A stretch of DNA of 28,106 nt from Candidatus Methylomirabilis limnetica (GCF_003044035.1 NZ_NVQC01000025.1:1-28106), one strand, 5' to 3'; positions 6,418-24,704 are shown, numbered from the stretch's first letter. Notes: generated by a model not told the origin, from the sequence alone. Made by a program: numbers and translations.

Positions 6418-6632
6418 GGATTTATTGATCCTCTCCGCACCACCCAAGGGCACGACGCGGGAAGAACATCGCCTCCCATTCGAAGGATCGAGATCCGGCA
6501 ATTGTGCCAGGCCATCAAGCTGGTTAATGCTATCACAATTATCATATCGGTAGGTATATTTGCACTAATCACGTGACTGCGCAGGAAGATAGGCTGAAGG
6601 AGGAGTCCTCTCGCCTCAACCCGAACCTTCTA

Positions 6633-6778
6633 CCCCCCCCATCCTCACCTTCCCCCGCAAGGGGGGAAGGGATAACCGCAGGGAAGCGCAAAGGGGTTGA
6701 CATATTTAGTGGATCGCGTAAGTATGTAAGTGCTTACTTTAATCCCCCCTAACCCCCCTTTTGTAAAGGGGGGGATTT
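6633..6778. repeat. Two G/C-tract hairpin repeats (CCTTCCCCC-GCAA-GGGGGGAAGG at 6633-6676; CCCCCCTTT-TGTA-AAAGGGGGG at 6741-6778)
   Basis: Palindromes read directly. The first is nearly identical to 13995-14039. They sit in the glgP/tetR divergent intergenic region. Confidence 0.75.
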
Positions 6779-8775: not shown

Positions 8776-8826
8776 AAAGGGAGGGTTAGGGAGTGCGGAG
8801 TGGAAAGTACGGTGCTGATCGCAACC

Positions 8827-8903
8827 TCAAACCTTGAACCTTGAACCTTGCACATTGAACTTTGAACTTTGAACCTCGAACGTTGAACTTTGAACCTTGA
8901 ACT
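8827..8903. repeat. Heptanucleotide tandem repeat (TTGAACY) x11
   Basis: tcaaacc ttgaacc ttgaacc ttgcaca ttgaact ttgaact ttgaacc tcgaacg ttgaact ttgaacc ttgaact. It ends 8 nt before the RND ATG. Confidence 0.9.
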
Positions 8904-12358: not shown

Positions 12359-12640
12359 ATGGAACTGACGCGGCGGCAGGAGATCATGACGATGCTCCGG
12401 GAGGGCGAGTGGACGTTGGACGAGCTGGCCATGAACTTCGTGGTGTCAAAAAAGGTGATCATCGATGACCTCGAGCATATCGCCCGCTCTGTCCCAAGGC
12501 CCTCTCGCCTCCAGATCCATCCCCCAACCTGCGAGGTGTGCGGCTATCGCTTCAAGGACCGGGCGAAGTACAACGATCCTTCCCGGTGCCCAATGTGCAA
12601 AAACGAACACCTTCGCTCCCAACGATTCCAGATCGTCTGA
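12359..12640 (+). CDS. Small transcriptional regulator: HTH domain fused to a C-terminal Zn-ribbon (COG3357-like)
   Basis: 93 aa. The N-terminal winged-helix-like segment is RRQEIMTMLREGEWTLDELA. Two CxxC pairs (CEVCG, CPMCK) form the ribbon. Confidence 0.7.
   Translation: MELTRRQEIMTMLREGEWTLDELAMNFVVSKKVIIDDLEHIARSVPRPSRLQIHPPTCEVCGYRFKDRAKYNDPSRCPMCKNEHLRSQRFQIV
12469..12583 (+). repeat. 115-bp direct repeat, copy 1 (inside the HTH/Zn-ribbon gene)
   Basis: 113 of 115 nt are identical to 23783-23897 (counted by hand). The mismatches are tac/ttc and aac/aat. Confidence 0.95.
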
Positions 12641-12709
12641 TGAGATGTACCGTAACGTCGCTTTGAATCCACTGGGGGTTCATTCCCCGCGGCTTACCAC
12701 GAGTTCGTC

Positions 12710-12768
12710 ATACCGGCGGAAGCCGGTATCCAGAGTGACCCGACTGGATTCCGTGTCAAGCACGGAAT
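12710..12768. repeat. REP-like double hairpin (ATACCGGC-ggaa-GCCGGTAT; ATTCCGTG-tcaag-CACGGAAT)
   Basis: Perfect 8-bp stems read directly, downstream of the Zn-ribbon gene. It may also act as a terminator. Confidence 0.75.
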
Positions 12769-12807
12769 GACGGGCCAGAACAGAAGACGATACCCTGCAG
12801 CTTACTG

Positions 12808-12851
12808 CGGGGTAGTTCATTCAGCCTCGCAAGAAAGTAAGACTAAGGGAG
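12808..12851 (+). ncRNA. Candidate preQ1-I riboswitch in the queF leader
   Basis: A 5-bp P1 (CGGGG 12808-12812 / CCUCG 12825-12829) encloses a 12-nt loop starting UAGU. An A-rich tail follows, then ACUAAGGGAG. ACUA can pair with the loop UAGU to form a pseudoknot, and the tail overlaps the SD 10 nt before the ATG. The tail is longer than in textbook examples. Confidence 0.35.
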
Positions 12852-13628: not shown

Positions 13629-14051
13629 TTACAGTTTGGACCTCCTCCCCCCTTGAGGGGGAGGATTGAGGTGGGGGGTCAAGACTTGTCGGATCTCCTC
13701 CACGACCGAAACGGGATGGCGTAACAGATCGTGGTCCCAAAACCGAACGACACGATATCCATGGCTCTGCAACCAGCCGGTCCGTTCCGTATCGTAGTTG
13801 AGCTGTGCCGCATGCTGCCCTCCATCCACTTCAACGATCAGTTTGCGTTCCAAACAGGCGAAATCCACAATGTACGGGCCCATCGGGTGCTGCCGCCGAA
13901 AACGATACCCGTCAATCTGCCGTAGCCGGATGCGACGCCACAGAGCCCTTTCGGCATCCGGAGGATCCTTCCTGAGAACGCGAGCCCTTCTGCTCACCCC
14001 CCCATCCTCACCTTCCCCCTCGCAGGGGGGAAGGGACACATCCACCAACAC
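13629..14051 (-). CDS. DUF559 (Vsr-like) endonuclease domain protein
   Basis: RARVLRKDPPDAERALWRRIR...GYRFRRQHPMGPYIVDFACLERKLIVEVDGGQH...RTGWLQSHGYRVVRFW is the DUF559 signature. Both ORF ends run into G/C hairpin repeats (13641-13678 and 13995-14039), so the true start may be internal. Confidence 0.8.
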   Translation of the reverse strand: MLVDVSLPPCEGEGEDGGVSRRARVLRKDPPDAERALWRRIRLRQIDGYRFRRQHPMGPYIVDFACLERKLIVEVDGGQHAAQLNYDTERTGWLQSHGYRVVRFWDHDLLRHPVSVVEEIRQVLTPHLNPPPQGGRRSKL

Positions 14052-14074
14052 CTTCCTGCCAAGAGCCTAATGAA

Positions 14075-14260
14075 TTGTCGAAGGTGGGCTCCGGACAAGG
14101 GTTTACTGGGTTTGAGGTGATGCGAAAAAGTGGTCTGTTCTACGAATACGAAAAAGGAGAAGGCTTGACCTTTTACACGAAGCGGTTTGCCTTCTTTGTG
14201 GGACGACGCTGCCGGGCCTCCACCCTGCAGGACGTGGCCAACAAGCTGCATCTGAACTGA
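14075..14260 (+). pseudogene. ISL3-family transposase N-terminal fragment
   Basis: TKRFAFFVGRRCRASTLQDVANKLHLN resembles the HTH_Tnp_ISL3 segment (TKRF..fv...c...t..dVA..l.l.W). It is truncated at both ends. Confidence 0.45.
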
Positions 14261-14262
14261 AA

Positions 14263-14484
14263 TGTCAGGGGACGATGCGGATCATCAGTGTCATCGAGGA
14301 CCCGTCGGTGATCCGGGACCTCCTCAATCATCTGGGACTCTGGCCGGCAAGCACAAGACCACCACCAAAAGCTCACGCCACACCAATCTGGGAATACGCC
14401 GCTTGCGATCTCCAACTTCAAACACACGCTGAGACTATCTACGGCGACCCCGACTACACCTGGGATGAAGACAGACAGCCATAA
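14263..14484 (+). pseudogene. IS91-family (Y2 rolling-circle) transposase C-terminal fragment, copy A
   Basis: KCQGTMRIISVIEDPSVIRDLLNHLGLW..RPPP...DPDYTWDED resembles the Zn-finger tail and extreme C-terminus of IS91-family transposases, as I recall them. It abuts the ISL3 fragment with no intervening start. Confidence 0.55.
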
Positions 14485-14596
14485 CGCATTGTGAAACAAA
14501 GGCGTGCAGGAGAGGTCTGTCTGTATTGTGCTCACAAATGCCCTCTTGCCGGGTGACTCGACCACAAGATGAGCTGATTTCTCAAAAGAGCGGTCC
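14290..14596 (+). repeat. ~305-bp direct repeat, copy A (IS91-like 3' coding end plus ~110 nt downstream)
   Basis: Aligns colinearly with 16256-16560, at roughly four-fifths identity by eye. Confidence 0.85.
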
Positions 14597-14657
14597 CCGA
14601 TCCACCTTCCTTACCCAACCGCATCGCCAGCCCCTGTTTTTCGATGCACAATATCTG

Positions 14658-14686
14658 TTGACAAGCAACAACAGCCTTCCTATACT
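14658..14686 (+). promoter_or_regulatory. Sigma70-type promoter, module copy A: TTGACA-17 nt-TATACT
   Basis: Hexamers and spacer were counted directly. It lies 144 nt upstream of the GGDEF-PilZ ATG and is part of the triplicated module 14618-14745. Confidence 0.6.
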
Positions 14687-14829
14687 TCCAGCCATCGAAA
14701 GCAATGCCTTATCAAAATAAATAAATCAAACAAACAAACAAACAATGTTACGCTCACCAGGCTGCCCGCTTGATAGGGGCGACCGCCACCCCTTTCGTTA
14801 AACGCGCACCCGCAGGAAGCTTAGTCTTT

Positions 14830-16014
14830 ATGGAGAATTTAACCGAGTTCGAAGCTTTCAAAGATCGCGTCATCTCGCTAGTGTCAGAGGACTCGCTCAA
14901 CCGGAAATTCCTCACTGAGCAGATCAACGAAATTTTCCTCCAGCGCGTCGATGGCTGCCTCTATTCCCGGCTTCTGGCGCTCTTCGTCCACTTGGACTTT
15001 GATGAAGCCGAGGCCCAGCGCCACTGGGTGAGCATACTCGATAATTACAACTACTTTCATGAGGTACTGCGGCGCAAGGTGGGGCTGCGGGTGGCGATGT
15101 TTGACTACTTTCTCAATAGTAATCAGCTCCTCCAGAACCCGATCCTCGTCGAAATCCATCTGTTCCAGCAGGCCACCTTTATGGCCATGCAAGACCACCT
15201 CACCAATCTCTTCAACCGCCGCTATTTCGATATCGCCCTGGAAAAGGAAATCAAGCGCTCCGCGCGCTGGCAAACAGATTTCTCGTTACTGATGATCGAC
15301 CTGGATAATTTCAAACAGGTCAACGACGTGCACGGCCACCTCTTCGGGGATAAGGTGCTCAAGGATCTCGCCGCAGTGCTGAAACAGCTCAGCCGGGAAG
15401 AAGATACCGTCTGCCGCTACGGGGGCGAAGAGTTTATCGTCTTGCTGCCGGGCACCACCGCGAGCGGCGCGCTTCACTACGGGGAGCGGGTGCGGGCCGC
15501 CTTGGCAGAAAACGATTTTTTGTATCGCCATCACATCACCTTCAGTGGCGGGATCGCCACCTTTCCCGCCGATGGCAGCGAGGCGGTGACCTTGCTCAAG
15601 GGTGCCGATGTCTCGCTTTATCAAGCCAAGTTTTCCGGAAAAGATTGCATCGTCAAAAGTTCCCAGGAACGTCGCCATGGCAAACGCCATCCCCAAACCT
15701 GGCAGATCAGCTACCAGCCGCTGGAGCAGACCTTCACCACCCCTGAGATTCACGAGGCTTACGCTCAGGACGTCTCACTCGGCGGCGTCAGATTTGAAAT
15801 GGCGCAAGTGTTTTCCCTGGACGACAAATTATTGCTCCACATCAAGCTCCCCGAGCTTCAGGGCGTCATCGTTGTCGGGAAGGTCGCCTGGATCCGAAAA
15901 CTGGAGTCGAACCGCTACGAATATGGCCTGCAGTTTCACGATCTGAAAGCCGAGCAGGTGGAAAATTTTAAAAAGGCTTTACCTGGAGGCGAAGCTTCCA
16001 TTCCAGATTTTTGA
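14830..16014 (+). CDS. Diguanylate cyclase (GGDEF) with intact I-site, fused to a C-terminal PilZ domain
   Basis: GGEEF at 15421-15435, preceded by RxxD (REED, from 15394). The guanine-specifying D is present (HLFGDKVL). The PilZ motifs RRHGKR (15670-15687) and DVSLGG (15769-15786) are both present. The start is taken at MENLTEF; the track start 14770 is a TTG. Confidence 0.9.
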   Translation: MENLTEFEAFKDRVISLVSEDSLNRKFLTEQINEIFLQRVDGCLYSRLLALFVHLDFDEAEAQRHWVSILDNYNYFHEVLRRKVGLRVAMFDYFLNSNQLLQNPILVEIHLFQQATFMAMQDHLTNLFNRRYFDIALEKEIKRSARWQTDFSLLMIDLDNFKQVNDVHGHLFGDKVLKDLAAVLKQLSREEDTVCRYGGEEFIVLLPGTTASGALHYGERVRAALAENDFLYRHHITFSGGIATFPADGSEAVTLLKGADVSLYQAKFSGKDCIVKSSQERRHGKRHPQTWQISYQPLEQTFTTPEIHEAYAQDVSLGGVRFEMAQVFSLDDKLLLHIKLPELQGVIVVGKVAWIRKLESNRYEYGLQFHDLKAEQVENFKKALPGGEASIPDF

Positions 16015-16129
16015 GCTACATGCGCGGCCAACAACCGCAGTGCGTCCTCTGCTTTTTTCTAACCACTTTTCTCATTGTATATTTAATTAACTGATGCGTT
16101 CATTTCGTTAAGGGTCGATACCCCGCGGC

Positions 16130-16449
16130 TTGCCGCGTCCGTGTGATCTCGATATGGCAGAAGGTGTACTCCTGGCTTCGTATGCAACTCATCCGTCTGC
16201 CCTGAAGGTATGCGGCCAGCGCCGTTGGATACCCATCAGCTTGCCGCGGGGAGGCGTCATCAAGGACCCGTCGGTGATCCGGGTTCTCCTCACTCCTCTG
16301 GGACTTTGGCTGGCAAGCGTAAGACCGCCACCACACGCTCACGCCCCGCCATCCGGGACTACACCGCTGTCGATCGAAAGCTTCACACGCATGTGGAGAC
16401 TCTCTACGGCGACCCCGACTACACCCGGGATGAAGACATGCAGTCGTGA
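16130..16449 (+). pseudogene. IS91-family transposase C-terminal fragment, copy B (disrupted)
   Basis: ..VCGQRRW..VIKDPSVIRVLLTPLGLWLASVRPPP is followed, in a shifted frame, by ETLYGDPDYTRDEDMQS. It is homologous to copy A at the nucleotide level. Confidence 0.5.
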
Positions 16450-16560
16450 CGCATCGTGAAACACAGGCGTGCAGGAGAGGCCTGTCTGCATGGCGCTCAT
16501 AAATGCCCTCTTACCGGGTGATTAGACCACAAGATGAGCTTATTACTTAAAAGAGCAGTC
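16256..16560 (+). repeat. ~305-bp direct repeat, copy B
   Basis: Colinear with 14290-14596. Confidence 0.85.
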
Positions 16561-16633
16561 ATATACATCTATCTTAGCAAAAATCATCGTAATATACTGC
16601 GATTAGATGTATAATATCATTGCACAATGATTA

Positions 16634-16662
16634 CTGATAGAAACAAACAGCCTTACTATACC
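16634..16662 (+). promoter_or_regulatory. Module copy B, promoter-like: CTGATA-17 nt-TATACC
   Basis: This is a degenerate version of copies A and C at the homologous position. A perfect TATAAT also occurs at 16610-16615. Confidence 0.35.
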
Positions 16663-16790
16663 CTAGCCAGCAAATGTAATACATTATCAATACACCACAA
16701 TCATAAAAATCAAATCAAAGGTCAGGTTAGCTTGAGAATGTCCGCTCAATAGGGGTAGAATAAAGACCCAGTTGAGAGGAGGCAAGAGGC

Positions 16791-17215
16791 ATGGTTGAAG
16801 GCAAGAAGCGAATGACGGCAACGCGGAAGCTGGAGGTATACATAGAGATGTGCTGGAAGAACGCCAACGCGGGAGAGATCCTGCGGCGGTATTGGCTCCA
16901 CCTGAACGACCTCCGGCGGATCGAGATGTTGGTGGAGCTGGCAGCCCTTACGGCGCTCAATGGGAGCCGCCGAAGGCCTGGGGCAGATCCCCAGGCGGAC
17001 AGAGAATATGCCTAACTCGCGGCAGAGCTGGCGCAAACGGAGAATACTCTGGCCGAGTTGACCGTGGAGTACACCCTGCGCAAAAAAAGCGAGCGCTCGG
17101 GTTGGAAGGGTTCCTCGATGGCATCTACCTCCATAGCGGAGTGCGGGAGGCGCTGATCATGGCGACCAAGGACGCCATCGCGGGCGGGTTGACCGAGCGG
17201 GCGGGTAGAGGTTAT
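16791..17215 (+). pseudogene. IS3-family OrfA-like (HTH) transposase remnant with internal stop and frameshift
   Basis: GEILRRYWLHLNDLRRIEMLVELAALTAL then stop, then AELAQTENTLAELTVEYTLRKK and GVREALIMATKDAIAGGLTERAG in other frames. It is GC-rich and ends exactly where the AT-rich DNA begins. Confidence 0.5.
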
Positions 17216-17239
17216 GCCTCTGAGCTTTTACAGGAGGAA

Positions 17240-19153
17240 ATGAAATTGACCGTCGATAACCCTCTATATAATAGTAGGGTAATAGATACCTATATAAAGT
17301 TTGTTAAACAAAAATATGATTACGTAAATATCAGTGAATTATTAAGCTACGCAAAGATTGAGTCATATCAGGTTATAGACGAAGGCCACTGGTTTACTCA
17401 GAAACAGATAGACCTGTTTTATGAAAGGCTGGAAAAGCTAACTAAAAATAAAAACATAGCAAGGGAAGCTGGAAGATACGCGGCATCATCCGAGTCCCTG
17501 GGAGTAATGAGACAGTATATGTTGGGGTTTGTTGGCCCTGCAAAAGCTTATCAACTAATAGGAAAATATGCCCCTAAATTGGCCAAATCGTCAATTTATG
17601 AATCAAAAATAAAAACCTCTAATGGAATTGAAATTACTGTCACGCCGCTAAAAGGCGTCCACGAAAAACAATTTCAATGTGATAACAGAATCGGGTATTT
17701 TGAAGCCATTGCCTTAGCATTTAACTATAGTCTCCCTGAAATCAGACATCCTGAATGTGTCTTCAAGGGTGGGAAAGTTTGTCATTATATTATTTCATGG
17801 AAACAATCGTATTTCTCCTTCTGTAAAAAAATCAGAAATTATGCTGCCCTGTTTTTTCTCGCCGTAAGTCTCGGTGCTTCTTTCATGTATTCTTTGTCTA
17901 CGCTGATAACAATTGTACCATTTTCTGTTTTTGTTGTTCTTTCATTAACTCTCTATGCTGCAATTATCGAAAAAAAGGAATTAAATACAGCCATAGACAA
18001 CCTCAAGGTTTCGTCCGATGAGCTCATGGAACAGGTTGACGTAAATTATAACAATTCCCTAATGCTAAGTGAAATTGCACTATCTCTTAGCAAACAAATG
18101 GACATCGATATCATTTTATCTAATGCTATGAAAGTCTTGGAGGTCCGCCTTTGTTATGATCGTGGCGTGATTCTTTTAACAAATGAAGACAAGTCCCTGT
18201 TATTATTCCGCGCAGGTTTTGGTTATACTCCCGAGCAATTAAACGTTTTGAAGAACACTCAGTTTCACTTAAATATGACTGAGTCAAAGGGGCTGTTTGT
18301 TGTCTCTTTTCGTGAAAAGAAACCATTTTTAATAAATGATTTACAAGAGATAGAGGCCCACCTTTCATCTCACAGCCTGGAATTTGCAAAAAAAATGGGG
18401 GCATTATCCTTTATCTGTTGTCCAATAATCTACGAAGGAGAGTCCCTGGGAATTCTTGCCGTAGACAATACAAAGACAAAAAAACCGTTGGTCCAGAGTG
18501 ATATTAGTTTGCTTATGGGCGTTGCGCCTGAAATTGGGATGAGCATTCATAACTGCTTACTCCTGGAAGCCAAAGAACGACAATTTGAATCGATAATACA
18601 CGTCTTAGCGGCTAGCATTGATGCTCGAGACCCACTGACAGCAGGTCATTCCGAAAAGGTTACAGAATACGCCATGGGAATATGTCACGAATTAGACATA
18701 CCGAAGGAAGACCGAGAAATCATTCGTATTGCCTCATCACTGCATGATTATGGCAAGATAGGTATTAAAGATTCTATCTTAATGAAACCAGGCAAACTGG
18801 ATCCAGAAGAGCGTAAGGCAATAGAAACTCATGCGGACAAAACCAAGAAAATATTGGAACGGGTACACTTTGAAGGCGTTTATGGGGAGATTCCTAATAT
18901 TGCGGGATCACACCATGAAAAAATTGATGGCAGTGGTTACCCAAAGGGACAGAAGGGAGAAGATATTCCTCTGGGTGCTAGGATAATTGGTGTAGCTGAC
19001 TTTTTCGAAGCTATAACAGCAAAACGTCATTACAGGGACCCGATGCCCATCGATGTAGCGTTTCAACTACTCAATGAGGAGGTAGGAAAAAGTTATGACA
19101 AAAATATTGTTGATGCTTTTATTAGATATTATAACGGGAGGTTAAAGACTTAA
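17240..19153 (+). CDS. Membrane-anchored sensor protein: unknown N-terminal domain, 2 TM helices, GAF, HD-GYP c-di-GMP phosphodiesterase
   Basis: HD..HDYGKIGI..HHEKIDGSGYPKG motifs. The GAF-like block is SEIALSL...GILAVDN. The TM pair is YAALFFLAVSLGASF / IVPFSVFVVLSLTLYAAII. The start is taken at the ATG after AGGAGG; TTG 17246 is an alternative. The track ORF start 16850 fuses the IS3 remnant in frame. Confidence 0.85.
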   Translation: MKLTVDNPLYNSRVIDTYIKFVKQKYDYVNISELLSYAKIESYQVIDEGHWFTQKQIDLFYERLEKLTKNKNIAREAGRYAASSESLGVMRQYMLGFVGPAKAYQLIGKYAPKLAKSSIYESKIKTSNGIEITVTPLKGVHEKQFQCDNRIGYFEAIALAFNYSLPEIRHPECVFKGGKVCHYIISWKQSYFSFCKKIRNYAALFFLAVSLGASFMYSLSTLITIVPFSVFVVLSLTLYAAIIEKKELNTAIDNLKVSSDELMEQVDVNYNNSLMLSEIALSLSKQMDIDIILSNAMKVLEVRLCYDRGVILLTNEDKSLLLFRAGFGYTPEQLNVLKNTQFHLNMTESKGLFVVSFREKKPFLINDLQEIEAHLSSHSLEFAKKMGALSFICCPIIYEGESLGILAVDNTKTKKPLVQSDISLLMGVAPEIGMSIHNCLLLEAKERQFESIIHVLAASIDARDPLTAGHSEKVTEYAMGICHELDIPKEDREIIRIASSLHDYGKIGIKDSILMKPGKLDPEERKAIETHADKTKKILERVHFEGVYGEIPNIAGSHHEKIDGSGYPKGQKGEDIPLGARIIGVADFFEAITAKRHYRDPMPIDVAFQLLNEEVGKSYDKNIVDAFIRYYNGRLKT

Positions 19154-19175
19154 TCAAATAGTTGACAGATTTAAA

Positions 19176-19976
19176 TCAAGCAACAGGCTTACGTCCCCTG
19201 CAACAAATTACTGGCGTGTAAGTAAATCTTCTCGGATCGATAAAAAATCTATTAAATTCCCCTAAAAACTCTTCGTATCCTCCATCATATTCTTCAAAAT
19301 TGAAATTTACCTTCTTTGAGATAACTTCAAACTTCTTTGTCCAGTTGTAGGCATCAATGTCGTTTAATTCCCCAAATATCAGGTGATGAGCGGTAACATC
19401 CATGTTTATATCCTGATAGCCAAGATCATACAGGAAAGAATAAAGTTTTCTCCCTACATACGGATCGAAGTCTGCATTTTCCTCTAAATATTTTATAACG
19501 GCAAAAATGGTTCTTTCCAGCCTTGGTGAAATGCCAAAATGGCTTAAACAATTATGGTCTAAATCAACCAGGCACAAAATACCACCTGGCTTTATAAGCT
19601 TAGTTACATTTTTAACGATGTCAAAACTGCTAGAAAGGTAATACTCTAAAGCAAAACGCATCCAGACAAAGTCAAACATCTCCTCACCGCCAAGGGACTT
19701 TCGTATATCTCTACGCCTAAATGTTATCCCTTTATCGTTATAGCGTTCTTTAGCATATTCAATTCTCTTTTCTGAACCATCGAATCCGATTGCCACTCCA
19801 CCAGGTTGAACTAATTTATGTAATATAGAAGTTACTTTTCCTGAACCACAGCACATATCAGCAACGTGCATACCTGGCTTAATACCAGCCCAAAGAGCTT
19901 GCTGCTCAACAACTCTACTATTTGTTTTAATATCCAGACGGAAAGCCTCTTCTTCATTTTCCATTAAGTATTCCAT
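19176..19976 (-). CDS. Class I SAM-dependent methyltransferase
   Basis: Motif I VADMCCGSGKV, an acidic loop GFDGSE, and motif IV-like LIKPGGILCLVD. The substrate cannot be inferred. Confidence 0.8.
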   Translation of the reverse strand: MEYLMENEEEAFRLDIKTNSRVVEQQALWAGIKPGMHVADMCCGSGKVTSILHKLVQPGGVAIGFDGSEKRIEYAKERYNDKGITFRRRDIRKSLGGEEMFDFVWMRFALEYYLSSSFDIVKNVTKLIKPGGILCLVDLDHNCLSHFGISPRLERTIFAVIKYLEENADFDPYVGRKLYSFLYDLGYQDINMDVTAHHLIFGELNDIDAYNWTKKFEVISKKVNFNFEEYDGGYEEFLGEFNRFFIDPRRFTYTPVICCRGRKPVA

Positions 19977-20109
19977 AACCCCCCATCCTTTATGCTCTCA
20001 GGTGGTTTAGATCGATACCGGAAATATTTTTGTGATTATATCACTACTTACCATCCCCTGCTTTTCGATGTACAATATCTATACAAAATAATACCATGTA
20101 AAATAACTA

Positions 20110-20138
20110 TTGACAACTAAAAACAGCCTTACTACACT
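20110..20138 (+). promoter_or_regulatory. Sigma70-type promoter, module copy C: TTGACA-17 nt-TACACT
   Basis: Counted directly. It lies ~60 nt upstream of the ATG at 20199 and is part of the conserved module 20046-20190. Confidence 0.55.
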
Positions 20139-20198
20139 TAAAGCCATCAAAAGCAATGCCTTATCAAATAAAACAATCAACCCTGATCAGAGGTGGCA

Positions 20199-22382
20199 AT
20201 GGATAAACTCCAAAGAATTGCTAAGCTTTCCTACTATACCGACCCAGATAAGGGACTGGAAGAAAGAAAGAAGATCTCCAGAAAACGCCTAAGAAACACC
20301 CTGAACCATATTAATTTTCAAACTGGCACAATACTTATAAATTTCAAACACCTAAAGTATGATACTGTCCTATCTCTTCAAGCCAATCCACAGCCATGTC
20401 TTGAAAATAGTTTGGAATGTTTGTGGATTGAACCAGCAGGACTAAAACAGAAATTGAGTTCTTACAAATTTCTAAATTTTCTACTTACAGATGATCTAGC
20501 GCTTATTCTTGTTGAAGCTGCCTTAAAGGAAATAAGTGAGGAAGGAATTAGCTTCAGCCTCCCTGAAATTTGTTACGAGCTTAGCTATCGCAAGGTAAGA
20601 AGGCATTTATGCAAGGGTATTCAGGTTGATCTCATTCAAAACAGTGTAATATTTTACGGAACTCTTTTGAACTTTAGCGCTGTCTCGTTCTGTATAGAAG
20701 TATCAACTGAGCCATCCCAACCATTTCATTGGGTTAATCCTGAAGATACGGTATATGTTACATTCAAAAATAAACAGGATATCCTGTATTCAGGAGAATG
20801 CAGGATAATCCGACAAACGTATGGCCAAAAAAAGAGCGTCTTTATAGTAGAACCTGTAAACGATCAGATACGCAGATTTAAGACAAAAGAGTTTCGAAGC
20901 TCTCGACACAAATTATCACCCTCACCAAATATTAACTTTATACATCCTTTTACTCAGAAACTTATCAACATGGAAGTTGAAGATCTGACAGGTTCTGGTT
21001 TTTCTGTTGAGGAAGACATAGACAATGCTGTGCTTTTGGTCGGAATGATTATCCCGGAACTGTACATAGAAATAGGCTATGATTTTAAAATCAGATGCAA
21101 GTCCCAGGTTGTTAATAGAAATGTTCATACAGCCAACGATTGCAAAACTCTCGCGAAATGTGGAATGACCGTTTTAGATATGGACATCCAAGAACAAGTA
21201 AGACTTTCGAGTTATTTACAGCAGGCGGAAAATAAAAAGGCCTTTGTTTGCAACAGGGTGGACATAGATGCGCTGTGGAAGTTCTTTTTCGAGACAGGCT
21301 TTATCTATCCTAAAAAATATGCTCTTATGTCCGCTGACAAGGAAAAGTTTAAAGCAACTTATGAGAAGCTTTATGTCGAAAATCCCCATATAGCCAGACA
21401 TTTCGTATGCCAAGATAAAGGTATAATTCAAGCGCATGTATCGATAATCCGTTTTTATGAAGAGACATGGCTACTTCACAACCATGCCTCCCTCAGATCA
21501 GGACATGGCAATACCGGACTTGTTGTGATGAGGCAGGTTGAACGTTATATAAACGATTTTCACCGTCTCTATTCAGCACACATGAATTTTGTCGGTTGTT
21601 ATTTCAGACCAGATAATAAGTTTCCTATGCGTGTGTTTGGAGGGTGTGCCAGAGAAATCAATAATCCAAAGGCATGTTCCGTTGATTCCTTTGTCTATTT
21701 CTGTTTTCCAAGAGCTGGCACACAACCTGATCTACCGGAAGCATTGACATTAACTAAAACCCAGCCCGAAGACCTTTTAGAGCTGGAAACTTTTTATGAA
21801 TATGAATCCGGAGGTCTGATGCTTCAAGCCCTGGATTTAACGCCGGAAATGATTGATAATGATAATCTCAGTAAAGAATTTAACAAGCTTGGTTTCAAAA
21901 GGGAAAGGATTCTTTTTTCTTTGAAGAAAAATGATGTTCTAAGGGCAGTTATAGCGGTAAATGTCTCTGATATCGGCTTGAACCTGTCTAACCTGACGAA
22001 TTGCTTCCACGTTATTATCCTGGACGCTAAAGATCTCCCCGTTAACATAATTTATATCTGCCTCTCCATGCTATCAAAATATTATGAGCAGCAGGATGAA
22101 ATTCCTGTTTTATTGTATCCCGTTAGCTATGCGCAAAGCCACTCCGTAGCCTATGAAAAAATACATACCCTATGGATGTTGAATACACAATATGGTGATC
22201 AATACTTCAAATATATGGAGAATTTATTTCACCATAGGCATGATGATGAAGAGGCTCAATGTTCTATAGCTTACCCCGATATGGACGATACGAGAAGGCG
22301 GAGTGAGAAGCATGGGAGGTCGTTGCGCATTATCACTAAGGATGGGATTGACTCCCAACATGAAAACGAAGACGGACGCTAA
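20199..22382 (+). CDS. Large cytoplasmic protein: tandem degenerate PilZ-like domains plus an unrecognised ~390-aa C-terminal region
   Basis: Three motif pairs are visible: RKVRR(H) then NFSAVS 23 aa later (20589-20687); RSSRH then DLTGSG 26 aa later (20892-20999); and an N-terminal RKRLR with EISEEG. No TM helices or catalytic motifs were recognised. GAGG lies 5 nt before ATG 20199; the track start is GTG 20193. Confidence 0.5.
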   Translation: MDKLQRIAKLSYYTDPDKGLEERKKISRKRLRNTLNHINFQTGTILINFKHLKYDTVLSLQANPQPCLENSLECLWIEPAGLKQKLSSYKFLNFLLTDDLALILVEAALKEISEEGISFSLPEICYELSYRKVRRHLCKGIQVDLIQNSVIFYGTLLNFSAVSFCIEVSTEPSQPFHWVNPEDTVYVTFKNKQDILYSGECRIIRQTYGQKKSVFIVEPVNDQIRRFKTKEFRSSRHKLSPSPNINFIHPFTQKLINMEVEDLTGSGFSVEEDIDNAVLLVGMIIPELYIEIGYDFKIRCKSQVVNRNVHTANDCKTLAKCGMTVLDMDIQEQVRLSSYLQQAENKKAFVCNRVDIDALWKFFFETGFIYPKKYALMSADKEKFKATYEKLYVENPHIARHFVCQDKGIIQAHVSIIRFYEETWLLHNHASLRSGHGNTGLVVMRQVERYINDFHRLYSAHMNFVGCYFRPDNKFPMRVFGGCAREINNPKACSVDSFVYFCFPRAGTQPDLPEALTLTKTQPEDLLELETFYEYESGGLMLQALDLTPEMIDNDNLSKEFNKLGFKRERILFSLKKNDVLRAVIAVNVSDIGLNLSNLTNCFHVIILDAKDLPVNIIYICLSMLSKYYEQQDEIPVLLYPVSYAQSHSVAYEKIHTLWMLNTQYGDQYFKYMENLFHHRHDDEEAQCSIAYPDMDDTRRRSEKHGRSLRIITKDGIDSQHENEDGR

Positions 22383-22398
22383 GAGAGGGCGTTTTACT

Positions 22399-23697
22399 AT
22401 GAATCAAAAAGTATTATGGAGAGGAATAGCTGTTTATGTACTTATATTCTTTGTCTTTTGTACTACCTCAAATGCTTATGGCTCTGGCTTTGCAATCTTT
22501 ACACAGGGTGCATCGGCTTTAGGTCAGGCAGATGCTGTAATTGCGCACGCAGATGACCCCTCGGCGATTTTCTTCAATCCCGCATTGATTAATAAACTCG
22601 AAGGAACACAAATAGAACTAGGAACAACCCTGCTCTTCCCTTCGCAGGAATTTAAAAGTGCTGCAACGGGAAATTCATTTCGAACAGAAAGTCAGGTGTT
22701 TTACCCACCCACAGTTTTTGTTACCCATAAGTTCAATGATAAGATCAGCGCGGGTTTGGGTGTCTTTAGTCCTTTCGGACTAGGGATTAACTGGGGTAAT
22801 AGCTGGGAAGGAAGATACATAGCAACCGACTCAGAAATGATAACTTTTAATATCAATCCCGTAGTTTCATACAAGGTAACACCTGATTTTACATTTGCTG
22901 CAGGGGTGGATTTCCTTCTCCTTGACACAACGTTAAAAAAGAGTCTAAACCTGTCGGGCTTGGCGAGCGCTGTCCCTAGTCTTGGCCTTCCTGCCGGCCT
23001 TCCGGACGGTAGACAAAAATTTAAGGGTGATGGACATGGTGTTGGATATAATTTTGGAATTCTGTATGACGTCAATAAAGACATTTCGTTCGGCGCCTCA
23101 TACAGAAGCGAAATCAAAGTGGACATTGATGGTGATTCCACCTTTACTCTTCCGAGCCCCTCACTCGGAGCTCTATTTCCAAATACTTCCGGCAATTCAC
23201 ATATTACGCTTCCACGAGTAGTCCAGGCTGGCGTCGCTTACAAAGGTTTTAATCGACTGACGCTAGAAACTGGTATGAGATGGGAAGGCTGGTCATCATT
23301 CAAAGAATTAAGGATCAACCTCGATAAACCTGTTTTAGGCAGTACCACGTCCATCACAGAAAAAAACTGGCATGATACGTACTCTGCAAATCTTGGGGTA
23401 AAATATCAACTGAATGACACGGTTGCATTGCTTGCCGGATACTTATATGGAGGAAATCCAGTACCTGATAAGACATTTGACCCTATTGTCCCAGATGCGA
23501 CTACACACCTTTTCACCGTTGGAACAAATGTAAAATATAAGAACATGAGAATTGACCTATCATATGGTTATCAATTGCTGGAGGGGAGGAGTAAAAACAA
23601 TACGGTTGCTGATCCATTGAATCCTTTCAACAACGCCAACGGAAGGTATAATACAGATATTCATCTGTTCGGTATCAGTCTAACGTATAAAATATAG
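22399..23697 (+). CDS. Outer-membrane transport protein, OmpP1/FadL/TodX family
   Basis: Signal peptide [15 protein letters not shown], then [37 protein letters not shown] (the FadL-family N-terminal hatch signature) and an alternating beta-strand pattern. The start is taken at MNQKVLW, with an RBS-like AAGAGAGGG (22381-22389) 9 nt upstream. It begins 17 nt after the previous stop. Confidence 0.85.
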
Positions 23698-23730
23698 GCT
23701 CTTCTCCCAAACGAGTGGGTAGATTTTCAG
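23697..23730 (+). repeat. ISL3-like terminal sequence, copy 2 (GGCTCTTCTCCCAAACGAGTGGGTAGATTTTCAG)
   Basis: It starts on the last base of the OMP TAG stop and marks the AT-rich/GC-rich boundary. It is homologous to 13564-13597 in the same orientation. Confidence 0.45.
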
Positions 23731-24704
23731 TCTTTTTAGATCTCCGGGAGCATGCACGTAAGGATTTTCAGGCGCAGGTACTCCTCGAGCATATCGCCCG
23801 CTCTGTCCCAAGGCCCTCTCGCCTCCAGATCCATCCCCCAACCTGCGAGGTGTGCGGCTATCGCTTCAAGGACCGGGCGAAGTTCAATGATCCTTCCTAC
23901 GAGGTCTGCCGCCGCCTGAAACAGGAGCCGCCGACCCGCTTGATACCGATCGTCTTGCTCACGGCTCTAGCGGCGGAAGAAGCCCGGATCCGAGGGATCG
24001 AGGCGGGGGCTGATGACTTCATCACAAAGCCGTTCAGTCGGGCGGAGTTGAAGGCCCGCGTCCGCTCGCTGCTCAGGCTCAAGAAGTTTACCGACGAGTT
24101 GGAGCACGCCGAGGCCATGTTGCTCGCGCTGGGCCGAACCGTAGAGGCAAAGGACCCGTACACCCAGGGACACTGCGAGCGACTGGCGGCCTACTCGGTC
24201 GCCCTTGGACGGAAGCTTGGCCTGCCACCGGAGGAGCTGACAGCCCTGGACAGAGGCGGGACCCTGCACGATCTGGGGAAGATTGGGATCCCGGATGCGA
24301 TTCTGTTGAAACCCAGCGGCCTCAGCGAGGTGGAGTGGGTGATCATGCGCGAGCATACGGTGATCGGCGAGCGAATCTGCCAGTCGCTACGATCATTACA
24401 GCGAGTTCTGCCGATCATCCGCCATCACCATGAGCGATGGGACGGGAGCGGTTACCCTGATGGCCTTGCGGGCGAGGCGATCCCTCTCACGGCGAGAATC
24501 CTGCAGGTCGCTAACATCTTCGATGCGCTGAGGTCCGCGCGACCATACAAGCCTGCCTGGTCGCTACAAACCGCGTGCGATACCCTGCGGGATGAGGTGG
24601 CACGCGGCTGGCGTGATCCAGGCGTGGCTGAGCCATTCATCGAGCTGGTCGAGCTGGGCGGGCTGTCGGAGGCCCCGGAGCCTGCCGGTGGAGCAGGGGT
24701 ATAA
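23715..24704 (+). CDS. Chimeric, N-terminally decapitated response regulator-HD-GYP (RpfG-like) protein
   Basis: Residues after the repeat junction start mid-receiver ([24 protein letters not shown]), so the phospho-acceptor Asp region is missing. The HD-GYP domain is intact ([22 protein letters not shown]). The 5' ~60 codons derive from the IR-like sequence plus the Zn-ribbon gene duplicate. Confidence 0.65.
23783..23897 (+). repeat. 115-bp direct repeat, copy 2
   Basis: 113 of 115 nt are identical to 12469-12583. Confidence 0.95.

Follow-up and report, generated by a model that had tools for sequence, protein, structure and literature searches.

Promoter-like repeats beside cyclic di-GMP genes of Candidatus Methylomirabilis limnetica as probable oriIS-end remnants of an IS91-family element

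A 28,106-nt stretch of the Candidatus Methylomirabilis limnetica genome (GCF_003044035.1 NZ_NVQC01000025.1:1-28106), which was analysed in full and is called the window below, contains three copies of a promoter-like module close to genes of cyclic di-GMP (c-di-GMP) signalling. An earlier reading made from the sequence alone (the sequence-only reading) had described them as a ~130-nt portable promoter delivered with three unrelated cargo units or, alternatively, as the leader of a small regulon, and had pointed to a likeness to the oriIS end of IS91/ISCR elements. What is this module, and why does it stand in front of these genes? Here, we found that the apparent portable c-di-GMP promoter module is best explained by an ordinary object, namely remnants of an insertion sequence (IS) end that donate a promoter. 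Very probably, the three copies are 5'-truncated oriIS-side fragments of an IS91-family rolling-circle IS, with an outward promoter that probably drives the neighbouring genes.

All three copies were confirmed. The 16-nt core AACAGCCTTMCTAYAC was found on the plus strand at 14670, 16646 and 20122 (three matches versus 0 in 100 shuffles), and the 19-mer AAAGCAATGCCTTATCAAA is exact at 14698-14716 (copy A) and 20150-20168 (copy C). The blocks described earlier were reproduced by repeat families D5, D7 and D17 together with a three-way alignment, and all three copies carry the claimed hexamer pairs with an exact 17-nt spacer (Table 1). In agreement with the sigma-70 consensus hexamers, copy A scored 11/12, copy C 10/12 and copy B 8/12; a promoter scan of 14200-20400 ranked copy A as the top promoter-like site and did not list copy B. 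A profile built from non-window copies only (the independent profile) recovered copy A with E-values of 1e-14 to 4.5e-20 and copy C with 1e-9 to 2e-11. Copy B, rightly called the most diverged, was recognised by the 16-nt core, a 41-nt match and its place behind a transposase remnant. The extra ~30 nt reported in copy C is also present, but it is a local tandem duplication of ATG(T/C)A(C/A)AATA(T/A)CT rather than an insertion, and other family members have similar ones.

While the blocks of the ~130-nt unit stand, its size does not. Copies A and B share ~300 nt more upstream (14290-14595 versus 16256-16560, 83-85% identity, families D1 and D4), so the repeated unit is larger than had been proposed. 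Copy B is a mosaic, being 81-86% identical to copy A up to 16560 and only 61% identical from 16561 on, where its GC content is 0.30. A copy in L003, from another metagenome, resembles each of the two (88.6% for A and 85.0% for B) more than they resemble each other, which argues that they are not the result of a local duplication. All copies have a common sharp end of homology at TTATCAA.

The nature of the shared upstream DNA was revealed by its translation. Upstream of copy A, a reading frame ...KCQGTMRIISVIEDPSVIRDLLNHLGLWPASTRPPPKAH...* ends at the stop codon 14481-14483, and copy B is alike but frameshifted. The 73-aa remnant peptide of copy A had no Pfam match when searched alone, and the family call came from longer homologues. 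Its database relatives are short fragments; the longer among them have ...VRYYGYYSN...LIQKIYEIDPLVCPKCQG... and align with the C-terminal end of two NCBIfam models, ISCR_clade_Ia (415-506 of 509, E 1.5e-8) and IS91. Thus, copies A and B each follow, on the same strand, the 3'-terminal ~65-75 codons of a transposase gene of the IS91 family. A conserved mini-protein was also considered, as the best 120 matches to this C-terminus were 118-175 aa long; it was rejected because the alignment identified them as gene-call or contig-end fragments of full-length transposases, and intact genes were present in the genome scan described below. As a separate observation, a fragment of an ISL3-family transposase helix-turn-helix (HTH) domain (Pfam HTH_Tnp_ISL3, E 6.5e-4; 14061-14240) adjoins the 5' truncation point of copy A, the joint being ...CTGAAC|TGAAATGTCAGG.

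To place these remnants, genomes were scanned with the transposase C-terminus, using one genome per species. The scan gave 80 loci, mostly in genome bins of Syntrophales, Smithella and other Desulfobacterota, and the module profile matches more than 50 of them, on the same strand and 167-194 nt 3' of the transposase stop, whether of a gene or of a remnant. Uninterrupted transposase frames of 369-487 codons were present in 17 loci (at least 409 codons in 16 of them). Pfam Zn_Tnp_IS91 and Y2_Tnp were found in all three module-linked transposases tested (L027, L043 and L022), and both of those compared with the NCBIfam IS91 equivalog NF033538 passed it (L027 and L022; 181 bits versus a cut-off of 125). 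The same two missed the threshold of ISCR_clade_Ia (142.5 bits for L027 and 144 for L022, cut-off 925); these elements are relatives, not members, of ISCR clade Ia. Downstream of a Trichlorobacter lovleyi plasmid transposase, which is 63% identical, the module was not found.

The intact element in other genomes is ~1.7 kb long. It consists of a left end of ~70-100 nt with a palindrome, a Zn_Tnp_IS91/Y2_Tnp transposase gene of 409-487 codons and a non-coding right end of ~230-250 nt, whose final ~60 nt read TTGACA-N17-TATACT-N22-TTATCAA before the element stops. The module described earlier is the last ~60-130 nt of this element. In pairwise blastn comparisons of full-length copies, homology stops 228-257 nt 3' of the stop codon, directly past TTATCAA, and its left limit is ~65-101 nt 5' of the start codon. 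The alignment of 53 copies has high information over CTTGACA, TATACT and AAAAG(C/G)AAGTTCTTATCAA, and zero directly past TTATCAA. TTGACA was found in 45 of the 53 copies, the 17-nt spacer in 44 and TATACT in 35, and the distance from the -10 hexamer to TTATCAA is exactly 22 nt in 41 of 44 scorable copies, while the spacer sequence between the hexamers varies freely. TTGACA-N17-TATACT-N22-TTATCAA offers a compact signature for annotating such ends.

The two ends of the element are not inverted copies of each other, and the module was in every case on the gene's strand and 3' of it. At ~75 nt 5' of the transposase ATG, the left end (L021, L026, L041 and other loci) contains CTTGACAATAGAACGTTCGTTCTACTATG, with CTTGACA as at the right end, and its 7-bp palindrome TAGAACG..CGTTCTA holds GTTC twice; this part is probably a transposase promoter or operator together with the terIS hairpin. 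Inverted repeats at the right end are weak, namely GCATCG-N15-CGATGC in the window subgroup (GCATCG/CGATGC at 14621-14646 in copy A) and CCACA-TCT-TGTGG in the other, for which one compensatory variant (CCCCA/TGGGG) was seen. GTTC lies 7 nt inside the right end in most copies. All right junctions end in ...CTTATCAA, followed by C, T, A or G, and TCAA may belong to the element or to the target; no tetranucleotide shared by both ends could be defined at the element junctions. One internally deleted derivative (L004, 4571-5447) keeps the left end and transposase fragments of 73 and 148 aa, with no recognisable right-end module after them.

Repeated sequence is also seen at the terminus itself. 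In locus L041 (3468-3602), the last 36 nt of the element, from TATACT to TCAAT (TATACTGCC...TTATCAAT), are tandemly triplicated. Right after the terminus of copy A (14716-14746), there is a microsatellite AAAT AAAT AAAT CAAA CAAA CAAA CAAA, and microsatellites of TCAA(T)/CAAA type directly past the terminus occur in many loci (L042, L050, L036, L045 and L034). Both the triplication and the microsatellites may have arisen at the oriIS end, through slippage or through rounds of nicking and joining.

The likeness to oriIS was then examined on the ends of ISCR1 and ISCR2, read directly from plasmid records. The ISCR1 end is ...GGTTTATACTTCCTATACCC (also as ...CTTCCTATACCC and ...GGTGGTTTATACTTCCTATACCC), 232 nt past the rcr1 stop, and that of ISCR2/ISVsa3 is ...TTCTTCCTATACG (also as ...CTTCCTATACG and ...GCGTTTATTCTTCCTATACG), ~233 nt past its stop. 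The oriIS terminal motif of ISCR elements of clade Ia is ...TTCCTATAC(C/G), ~230 nt past the stop. In copy A, CTTCCTATAC stands at 14676-85, overlapping the -10 hexamer and 193-202 nt past the stop of the transposase remnant, with the element end 233 nt past that stop; the family consensus is cttccTATACT. The likeness therefore held in both motif and distance. The 232 nt past the rcr1 stop correspond to the "232-bp oriIS region" of ISCR1, which has two experimentally proven outward promoters, one of them with a -10 (TTTATA) overlapping oriIS, so that one region is experimentally both origin and promoter (PMC6218425).

Several features are common to ISCR1 (promoters PCR1-1 and PCR1-2, or POUT) and the window family: a place 3' of an IS91-family HUH transposase gene and on its strand, a non-coding oriIS-side part of ~232-233 nt holding CTTCCTATAC (in copy A), and, next to variable genes, an outward promoter of sigma-70 type with overlapping -10 and origin motif. 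On the other hand, the ISCR1 promoters are weak (TAAACG-N17-TAAGAT and TTCGGA-N18-TTTATA), whereas the window family has one near-consensus TTGACA-N17-TATACT. ISCR1 hosts are clinical gammaproteobacteria with resistance-gene neighbours; the window family occurs in environmental Syntrophales, Desulfobacterota and Methylomirabilota with non-resistance neighbours. IS91, IS801 and IS1294 resemble the family in their Zn_Tnp_IS91 plus Y2_Tnp transposase, dissimilar ends, a left palindrome with GTTC and one sharp right end, but no GTTC/CTTG target next to oriIS could be identified in the family, the last conserved bases of which are TCAA(T/C). We know of no description of IS91, IS801 or IS1294 in which the oriIS end has a conserved, consensus promoter directed outward, and a literature search joining IS91, outward and Deltaproteobacteria found nothing. 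Mobile-element fragments that are kept beside genes and provide promoters are familiar from delta-ISCR2, ISEcp1, ISAba1 and IS10 pOUT, where resistance genes are under antibiotic selection. These cases differ from the window, in which the neighbours are c-di-GMP signalling genes of an uncultured methanotroph, and from the family, whose fragments have serial 5' truncation points and one common 3' end. The mechanism is already known from ISCR1 and no new one is opened here; rather, the POUT idea now covers a further, uncharacterised clade of IS91 elements, one that is widespread among environmental anaerobes (Syntrophales, Smithella, Desulfobacterota and Methylomirabilota).

How would such a remnant act on its neighbours? 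The two hexamers would form a near-consensus sigma-70 promoter directed out of the element, with a -10 region overlapping CTTCCTATAC, the oriIS-end motif of ISCR1 and ISCR2. Transcription would start ~15 nt before TTATCAA, ~22 nt inside the element end, and would read into whatever lies to the right. Copy A would drive the GGDEF-PilZ gene, and copy C the PilZ-family gene, whose native upstream DNA has been replaced from position -30, together with FadL. By their hexamers, the promoters of copies A and C look functional; copy B is a decayed, strain-specific fragment whose promoter is probably inactive. The part of the earlier claim that concerns an outward-directed promoter from a mobile element is thus retained, while separate capture events are not (see below). 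Contig L101, which is ~90% identical to the window, has lost the TTATCAA terminus by deletion but not TTGACA-17-TACAAT, in line with selection acting on the promoter and not on mobility. A crude count of the first long open reading frame (ORF) downstream of module copies gave 37 on the module strand and 14 on the other, which would agree with a preference for keeping or inserting copies where their promoter can be used.

Several points weigh against the reading of the copies as promoter-donating oriIS ends. The promoter is a consensus match, and the sigma-70 consensus rules were assumed to be valid for Methylomirabilota and for the Syntrophales-type hosts of intact elements. The same-strand bias depends on crude ORF calls. 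ISCR1 stops 2 nt past TATAC, but the window family runs ~30 nt beyond its TATACT -10 to TTATCAA. Copy B is not significant with the independent profile (E 2.5). Moreover, CTTGACA is also present at the left end of the element and TATAC is the origin motif of ISCR elements, so the hexamers could instead be conserved for recognition by the transposase or at the origin. It follows that the hexamers and their fixed spacing might be oriIS or transposase-recognition features, with promoter activity incidental and not the reason for the persistence of the fragments. The 22 nt fixed between the -10 and the terminus, which a promoter alone does not require, point in this direction, and the triplication in L041 hints that both the TATACT and TCAAT positions are processing sites. 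We nevertheless consider this explanation unlikely. Both hexamers are near consensus with a 17-nt spacer of free sequence, they were kept in L101 after loss of the terminus, and copy C replaces the native upstream region of a gene; furthermore, the ISCR1 region serves both roles, which are therefore not exclusive.

With three copies in 6 kb, each in front of a GGDEF-PilZ, HD-GYP or PilZ-family gene, one could also think of a small c-di-GMP regulon, in which the module would be a shared cis-regulatory leader or promoter kept by a common regulator or by RNA structure. This is very improbable, as more than 50 loci have the module as the end of an IS91-family element. The ORFs downstream of 33 other copies are unrelated to each other and represent 59 different Pfam families (such as DcuC, molybdoenzymes, ROK, beta-lactamase fold and IstB), among which there is no c-di-GMP family. 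The suggested structured leader was not borne out either: the transcribed parts fold no better than shuffled controls (z-scores 0.39, -0.01 and 0.78), and the whole window had no Rfam match at gathering thresholds. No module is present at relatives of the PilZ-family gene whose surroundings are native. A further alternative, which the sequence-only reading had itself raised, is a generic short dispersed repeat resembling repetitive extragenic palindromes (REP) or miniature inverted-repeat transposable elements (MITE) and unrelated to gene starts. Although other short GC-rich hairpin repeats exist in the window (D6, D8 and I5), we regard it as extremely improbable, since the module is tied to the 3' side of the IS91-family transposase gene at fixed distance and orientation and has a single sharp end without terminal inverted repeats.

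Table 1. Copies of the IS91-family right end and adjacent genes in the window (positions counted from its first letter)
Feature	Position	Strand	Remarks
Copy A transposase remnant	14251..14483	+	5'-truncated 3' part of IS91-family gene, KCQGTMRIISVIEDPSVIRDLLNHLGLW; stop TAA 14481-14483; homologues P0001-P0017
Copy A right (oriIS-side) end	14484..14716	+	Non-coding, 233 nt; independent profile E 4.5e-20
Copy A hexamers	14658-63 (-35), 14681-86 (-10)	+	TTGACA, TATACT; 17-nt spacer
Copy A TTATCAA	14709-15		Element end 14715/16
GGDEF-PilZ gene	14830..16014	+	Pfam GGDEF 6e-44, PilZ 9e-12; ATG 14830, 114 nt past copy A end
Copy B transposase remnant	16256..16450	+	Frameshifted 3' part of IS91-family gene, 81% identical to copy A remnant
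Copy B right end	16451..16690	+	Mosaic, degenerate hexamers
Copy B hexamers	16634-39 (-35), 16657-62 (-10)	+	CTGATA, TATACC; 17-nt spacer
Copy B TTATCAA	16684-90		Element end 16690
Putative IS3-type left end and broken first-ORF remnant	16733..17230	+	TGAGAATGTCCGCTCAATAGGGG; between copy B and HD-GYP gene; conserved in L101
GAF-HD-GYP gene	17240..19153	+	Pfam GAF, HD_5; ATG 17240, ribosome-binding site AGGAGG 17232-37
SAM-dependent methyltransferase gene	19176..19976	-	Pfam; same neighbour in L098 and L100
Copy C	20051..20168	+	Last ~118 nt of element right end; no transposase remnant; independent profile E 2.3e-11
Copy C hexamers	20110-15 (-35), 20133-38 (-10)	+	TTGACA, TACACT; 17-nt spacer
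Copy C TTATCAA	20161-67		Element end 20167/68
PilZ-family gene, 727 aa	20199-22382	+	Homologues named PilZ, some with PF07238; ATG 31 nt past copy C end
FadL/TodX gene	22303-23697	+	Pfam; downstream of copy C

Comparison with related loci clarified how the fragments came to lie beside these genes. The gene content given earlier was broadly right, as Pfam confirmed GGDEF-PilZ, GAF-HD-GYP and FadL; the 727-aa protein itself had no Pfam, NCBIfam or PDB match and is PilZ only via its homologues. The cargo units were not unrelated, however. In L097 and L100 (Candidatus Wujingus californicus), the gene order is PilZ-like, GAF-HD-GYP, methyltransferase (minus strand) and FadL, with L097 ending after the second gene, whereas in the window and in L098/L099 (93-95% identical) it is GAF-HD-GYP, methyltransferase (minus strand), copy C, PilZ-like and FadL. 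As the same four genes are clustered in other organisms, the genes behind copies B and C represent one conserved foreign cluster that has been circularly permuted, with the IS91 end of copy C at the new joint. The cluster lies in a ~7-kb AT-rich block (16560-23700), which starts inside copy B and has a GC content of 0.35-0.46 versus ~0.55-0.65 elsewhere in the window, and its nearest relatives include anammox-type Planctomycetes (Ca. Wujingus, Kuenenia and Brocadia). This indicates that the c-di-GMP signalling genes of Ca. M. limnetica lie in a segment that is foreign and was remodelled by IS elements, and that their transcription probably starts at promoters brought by the element.

The boundary of copy C is fixed by an empty site. 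L097, in which the PilZ-family gene is 90% identical and in its native context, aligns with the window only from ~20168-20173 on, 30 nt 5' of ATG 20199; the native region upstream of this position has been replaced. L098 holds a longer fragment of the element with a perfect TTGACA-17-TATACT, and 322 nt present in L098 are missing from the window. For copy A no empty site was obtained, as the sole close relative found, L101, already carries the fragment: it matches window positions 14501-16082 and 16733-18970, has the non-coding part of copy A only, and shows the same arrangement of module and GGDEF-PilZ gene. L101 lacks 16083-16732, the whole stretch with copy B, and copy B is therefore polymorphic between strains.

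One could suppose that each module and the gene downstream of it arrived together as a mobile unit, either through rolling-circle transposition or via a circular intermediate. The position of copy C exactly at the novel joint agrees with this idea, because excision and re-entry of a circle, or tandem amplification followed by deletions, would give such a permutation; the start of the foreign AT-rich block inside copy B and a 115-bp direct repeat around the wider region, recalling the duplicated 3'-CS around ISCR1 cargo, are also in line with it. However, canonical one-ended IS91 transposition carries DNA past terIS, not past oriIS (PMC13181058), and no terIS-type left end was found in the window by profile and pattern search. 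In addition, copies B and C flank one cluster instead of two independent cargoes, copies A and B are each nearer to a copy in L003 than to one another as mentioned above, and the downstream genes at other loci look like ordinary residents. The capture idea is weakly supported, the permutation and the 115-bp repeat speaking for it and the one-ended polarity contradicting it, and we think it quite unlikely. The repeat itself is 98% identical between its two copies (12469-12583 and 23783-23897) and brackets the whole IS-rich segment, which also holds queF. Its first copy lies inside a PF0610-like HTH/zinc-ribbon gene (12359-12640); the second is a piece of the same gene fused before a 5'-truncated response-regulator-HD-GYP gene (23715-24704).

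Returning to the reading of the copies as truncated oriIS ends, the pattern of truncation was mapped by blastn on the full-length element in L027. Twelve independent fragments start at element coordinates 426, 627, 940, 942, 1046, 1083, 1234 (copy A), 1493, 1536, 1645, 1647 (copy C) and 1654, and all of them end at 1714-1728. This 5'-truncation series can mean either deletions that spared a selected promoter or abortive rolling-circle transfer from oriIS. Under the latter, the fragments would be "dead-on-arrival" products that keep the terminus and promoter after variable 5' loss and act as mobile promoter cassettes, a possibility to which we assign little weight. Variable 5' loss is also seen in long interspersed nuclear elements (LINE). 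If abortive transfer were true, the promoter would be conserved in the intact element for reading across an oriIS-terIS joint, in a circle or tandem, into the transposase gene.

Some gene models in this region could also be corrected. In alignments of the GAF-HD-GYP gene with L097, L098 and L100, homology begins at ATG 17240, which identifies the 767-aa ORF from 16850 as an artefact caused by read-through of the upstream IS3-type remnant. This IS3 debris puts 550 nt between copy B and the HD-GYP gene. The IS3 assignment of 16733-17230 depends on the call of the sequence-only reading and on the appearance of the sequence, and the 74-aa remnant peptide had no Pfam match. A 17-mer akin to TGAGAATGTCCGCTCAATAGGGG, GCCCGCTTGATAGGGGC, is present at 14766-14782, 50 nt past copy A, and may be a solo inverted repeat or a chance match.

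Other repeats were noticed in the window. Two ~130-nt elements (12681-12809 and 16117-16248) have GATACCCCGCGGCTTGCCGCG-like repeats (D8) with CCGCGG hairpins at their edges and are possibly of a small REP or MITE type; the second is inside the 650-nt stretch missing from L101. The GC-rich repeats CCCCCCATCCTCACCTTCCCCC..GGGGGGAAGG, direct and inverted (D6 and I5), at 6627-6671, 13990-14034 and 13646-13678 look like REP-type intergenic hairpins. Finally, imperfect 7-nt tandem units (AACCTTG/AACTTTG) occupy 8823-8902, between a membrane-fusion gene and a resistance-nodulation-division (RND) pump gene.

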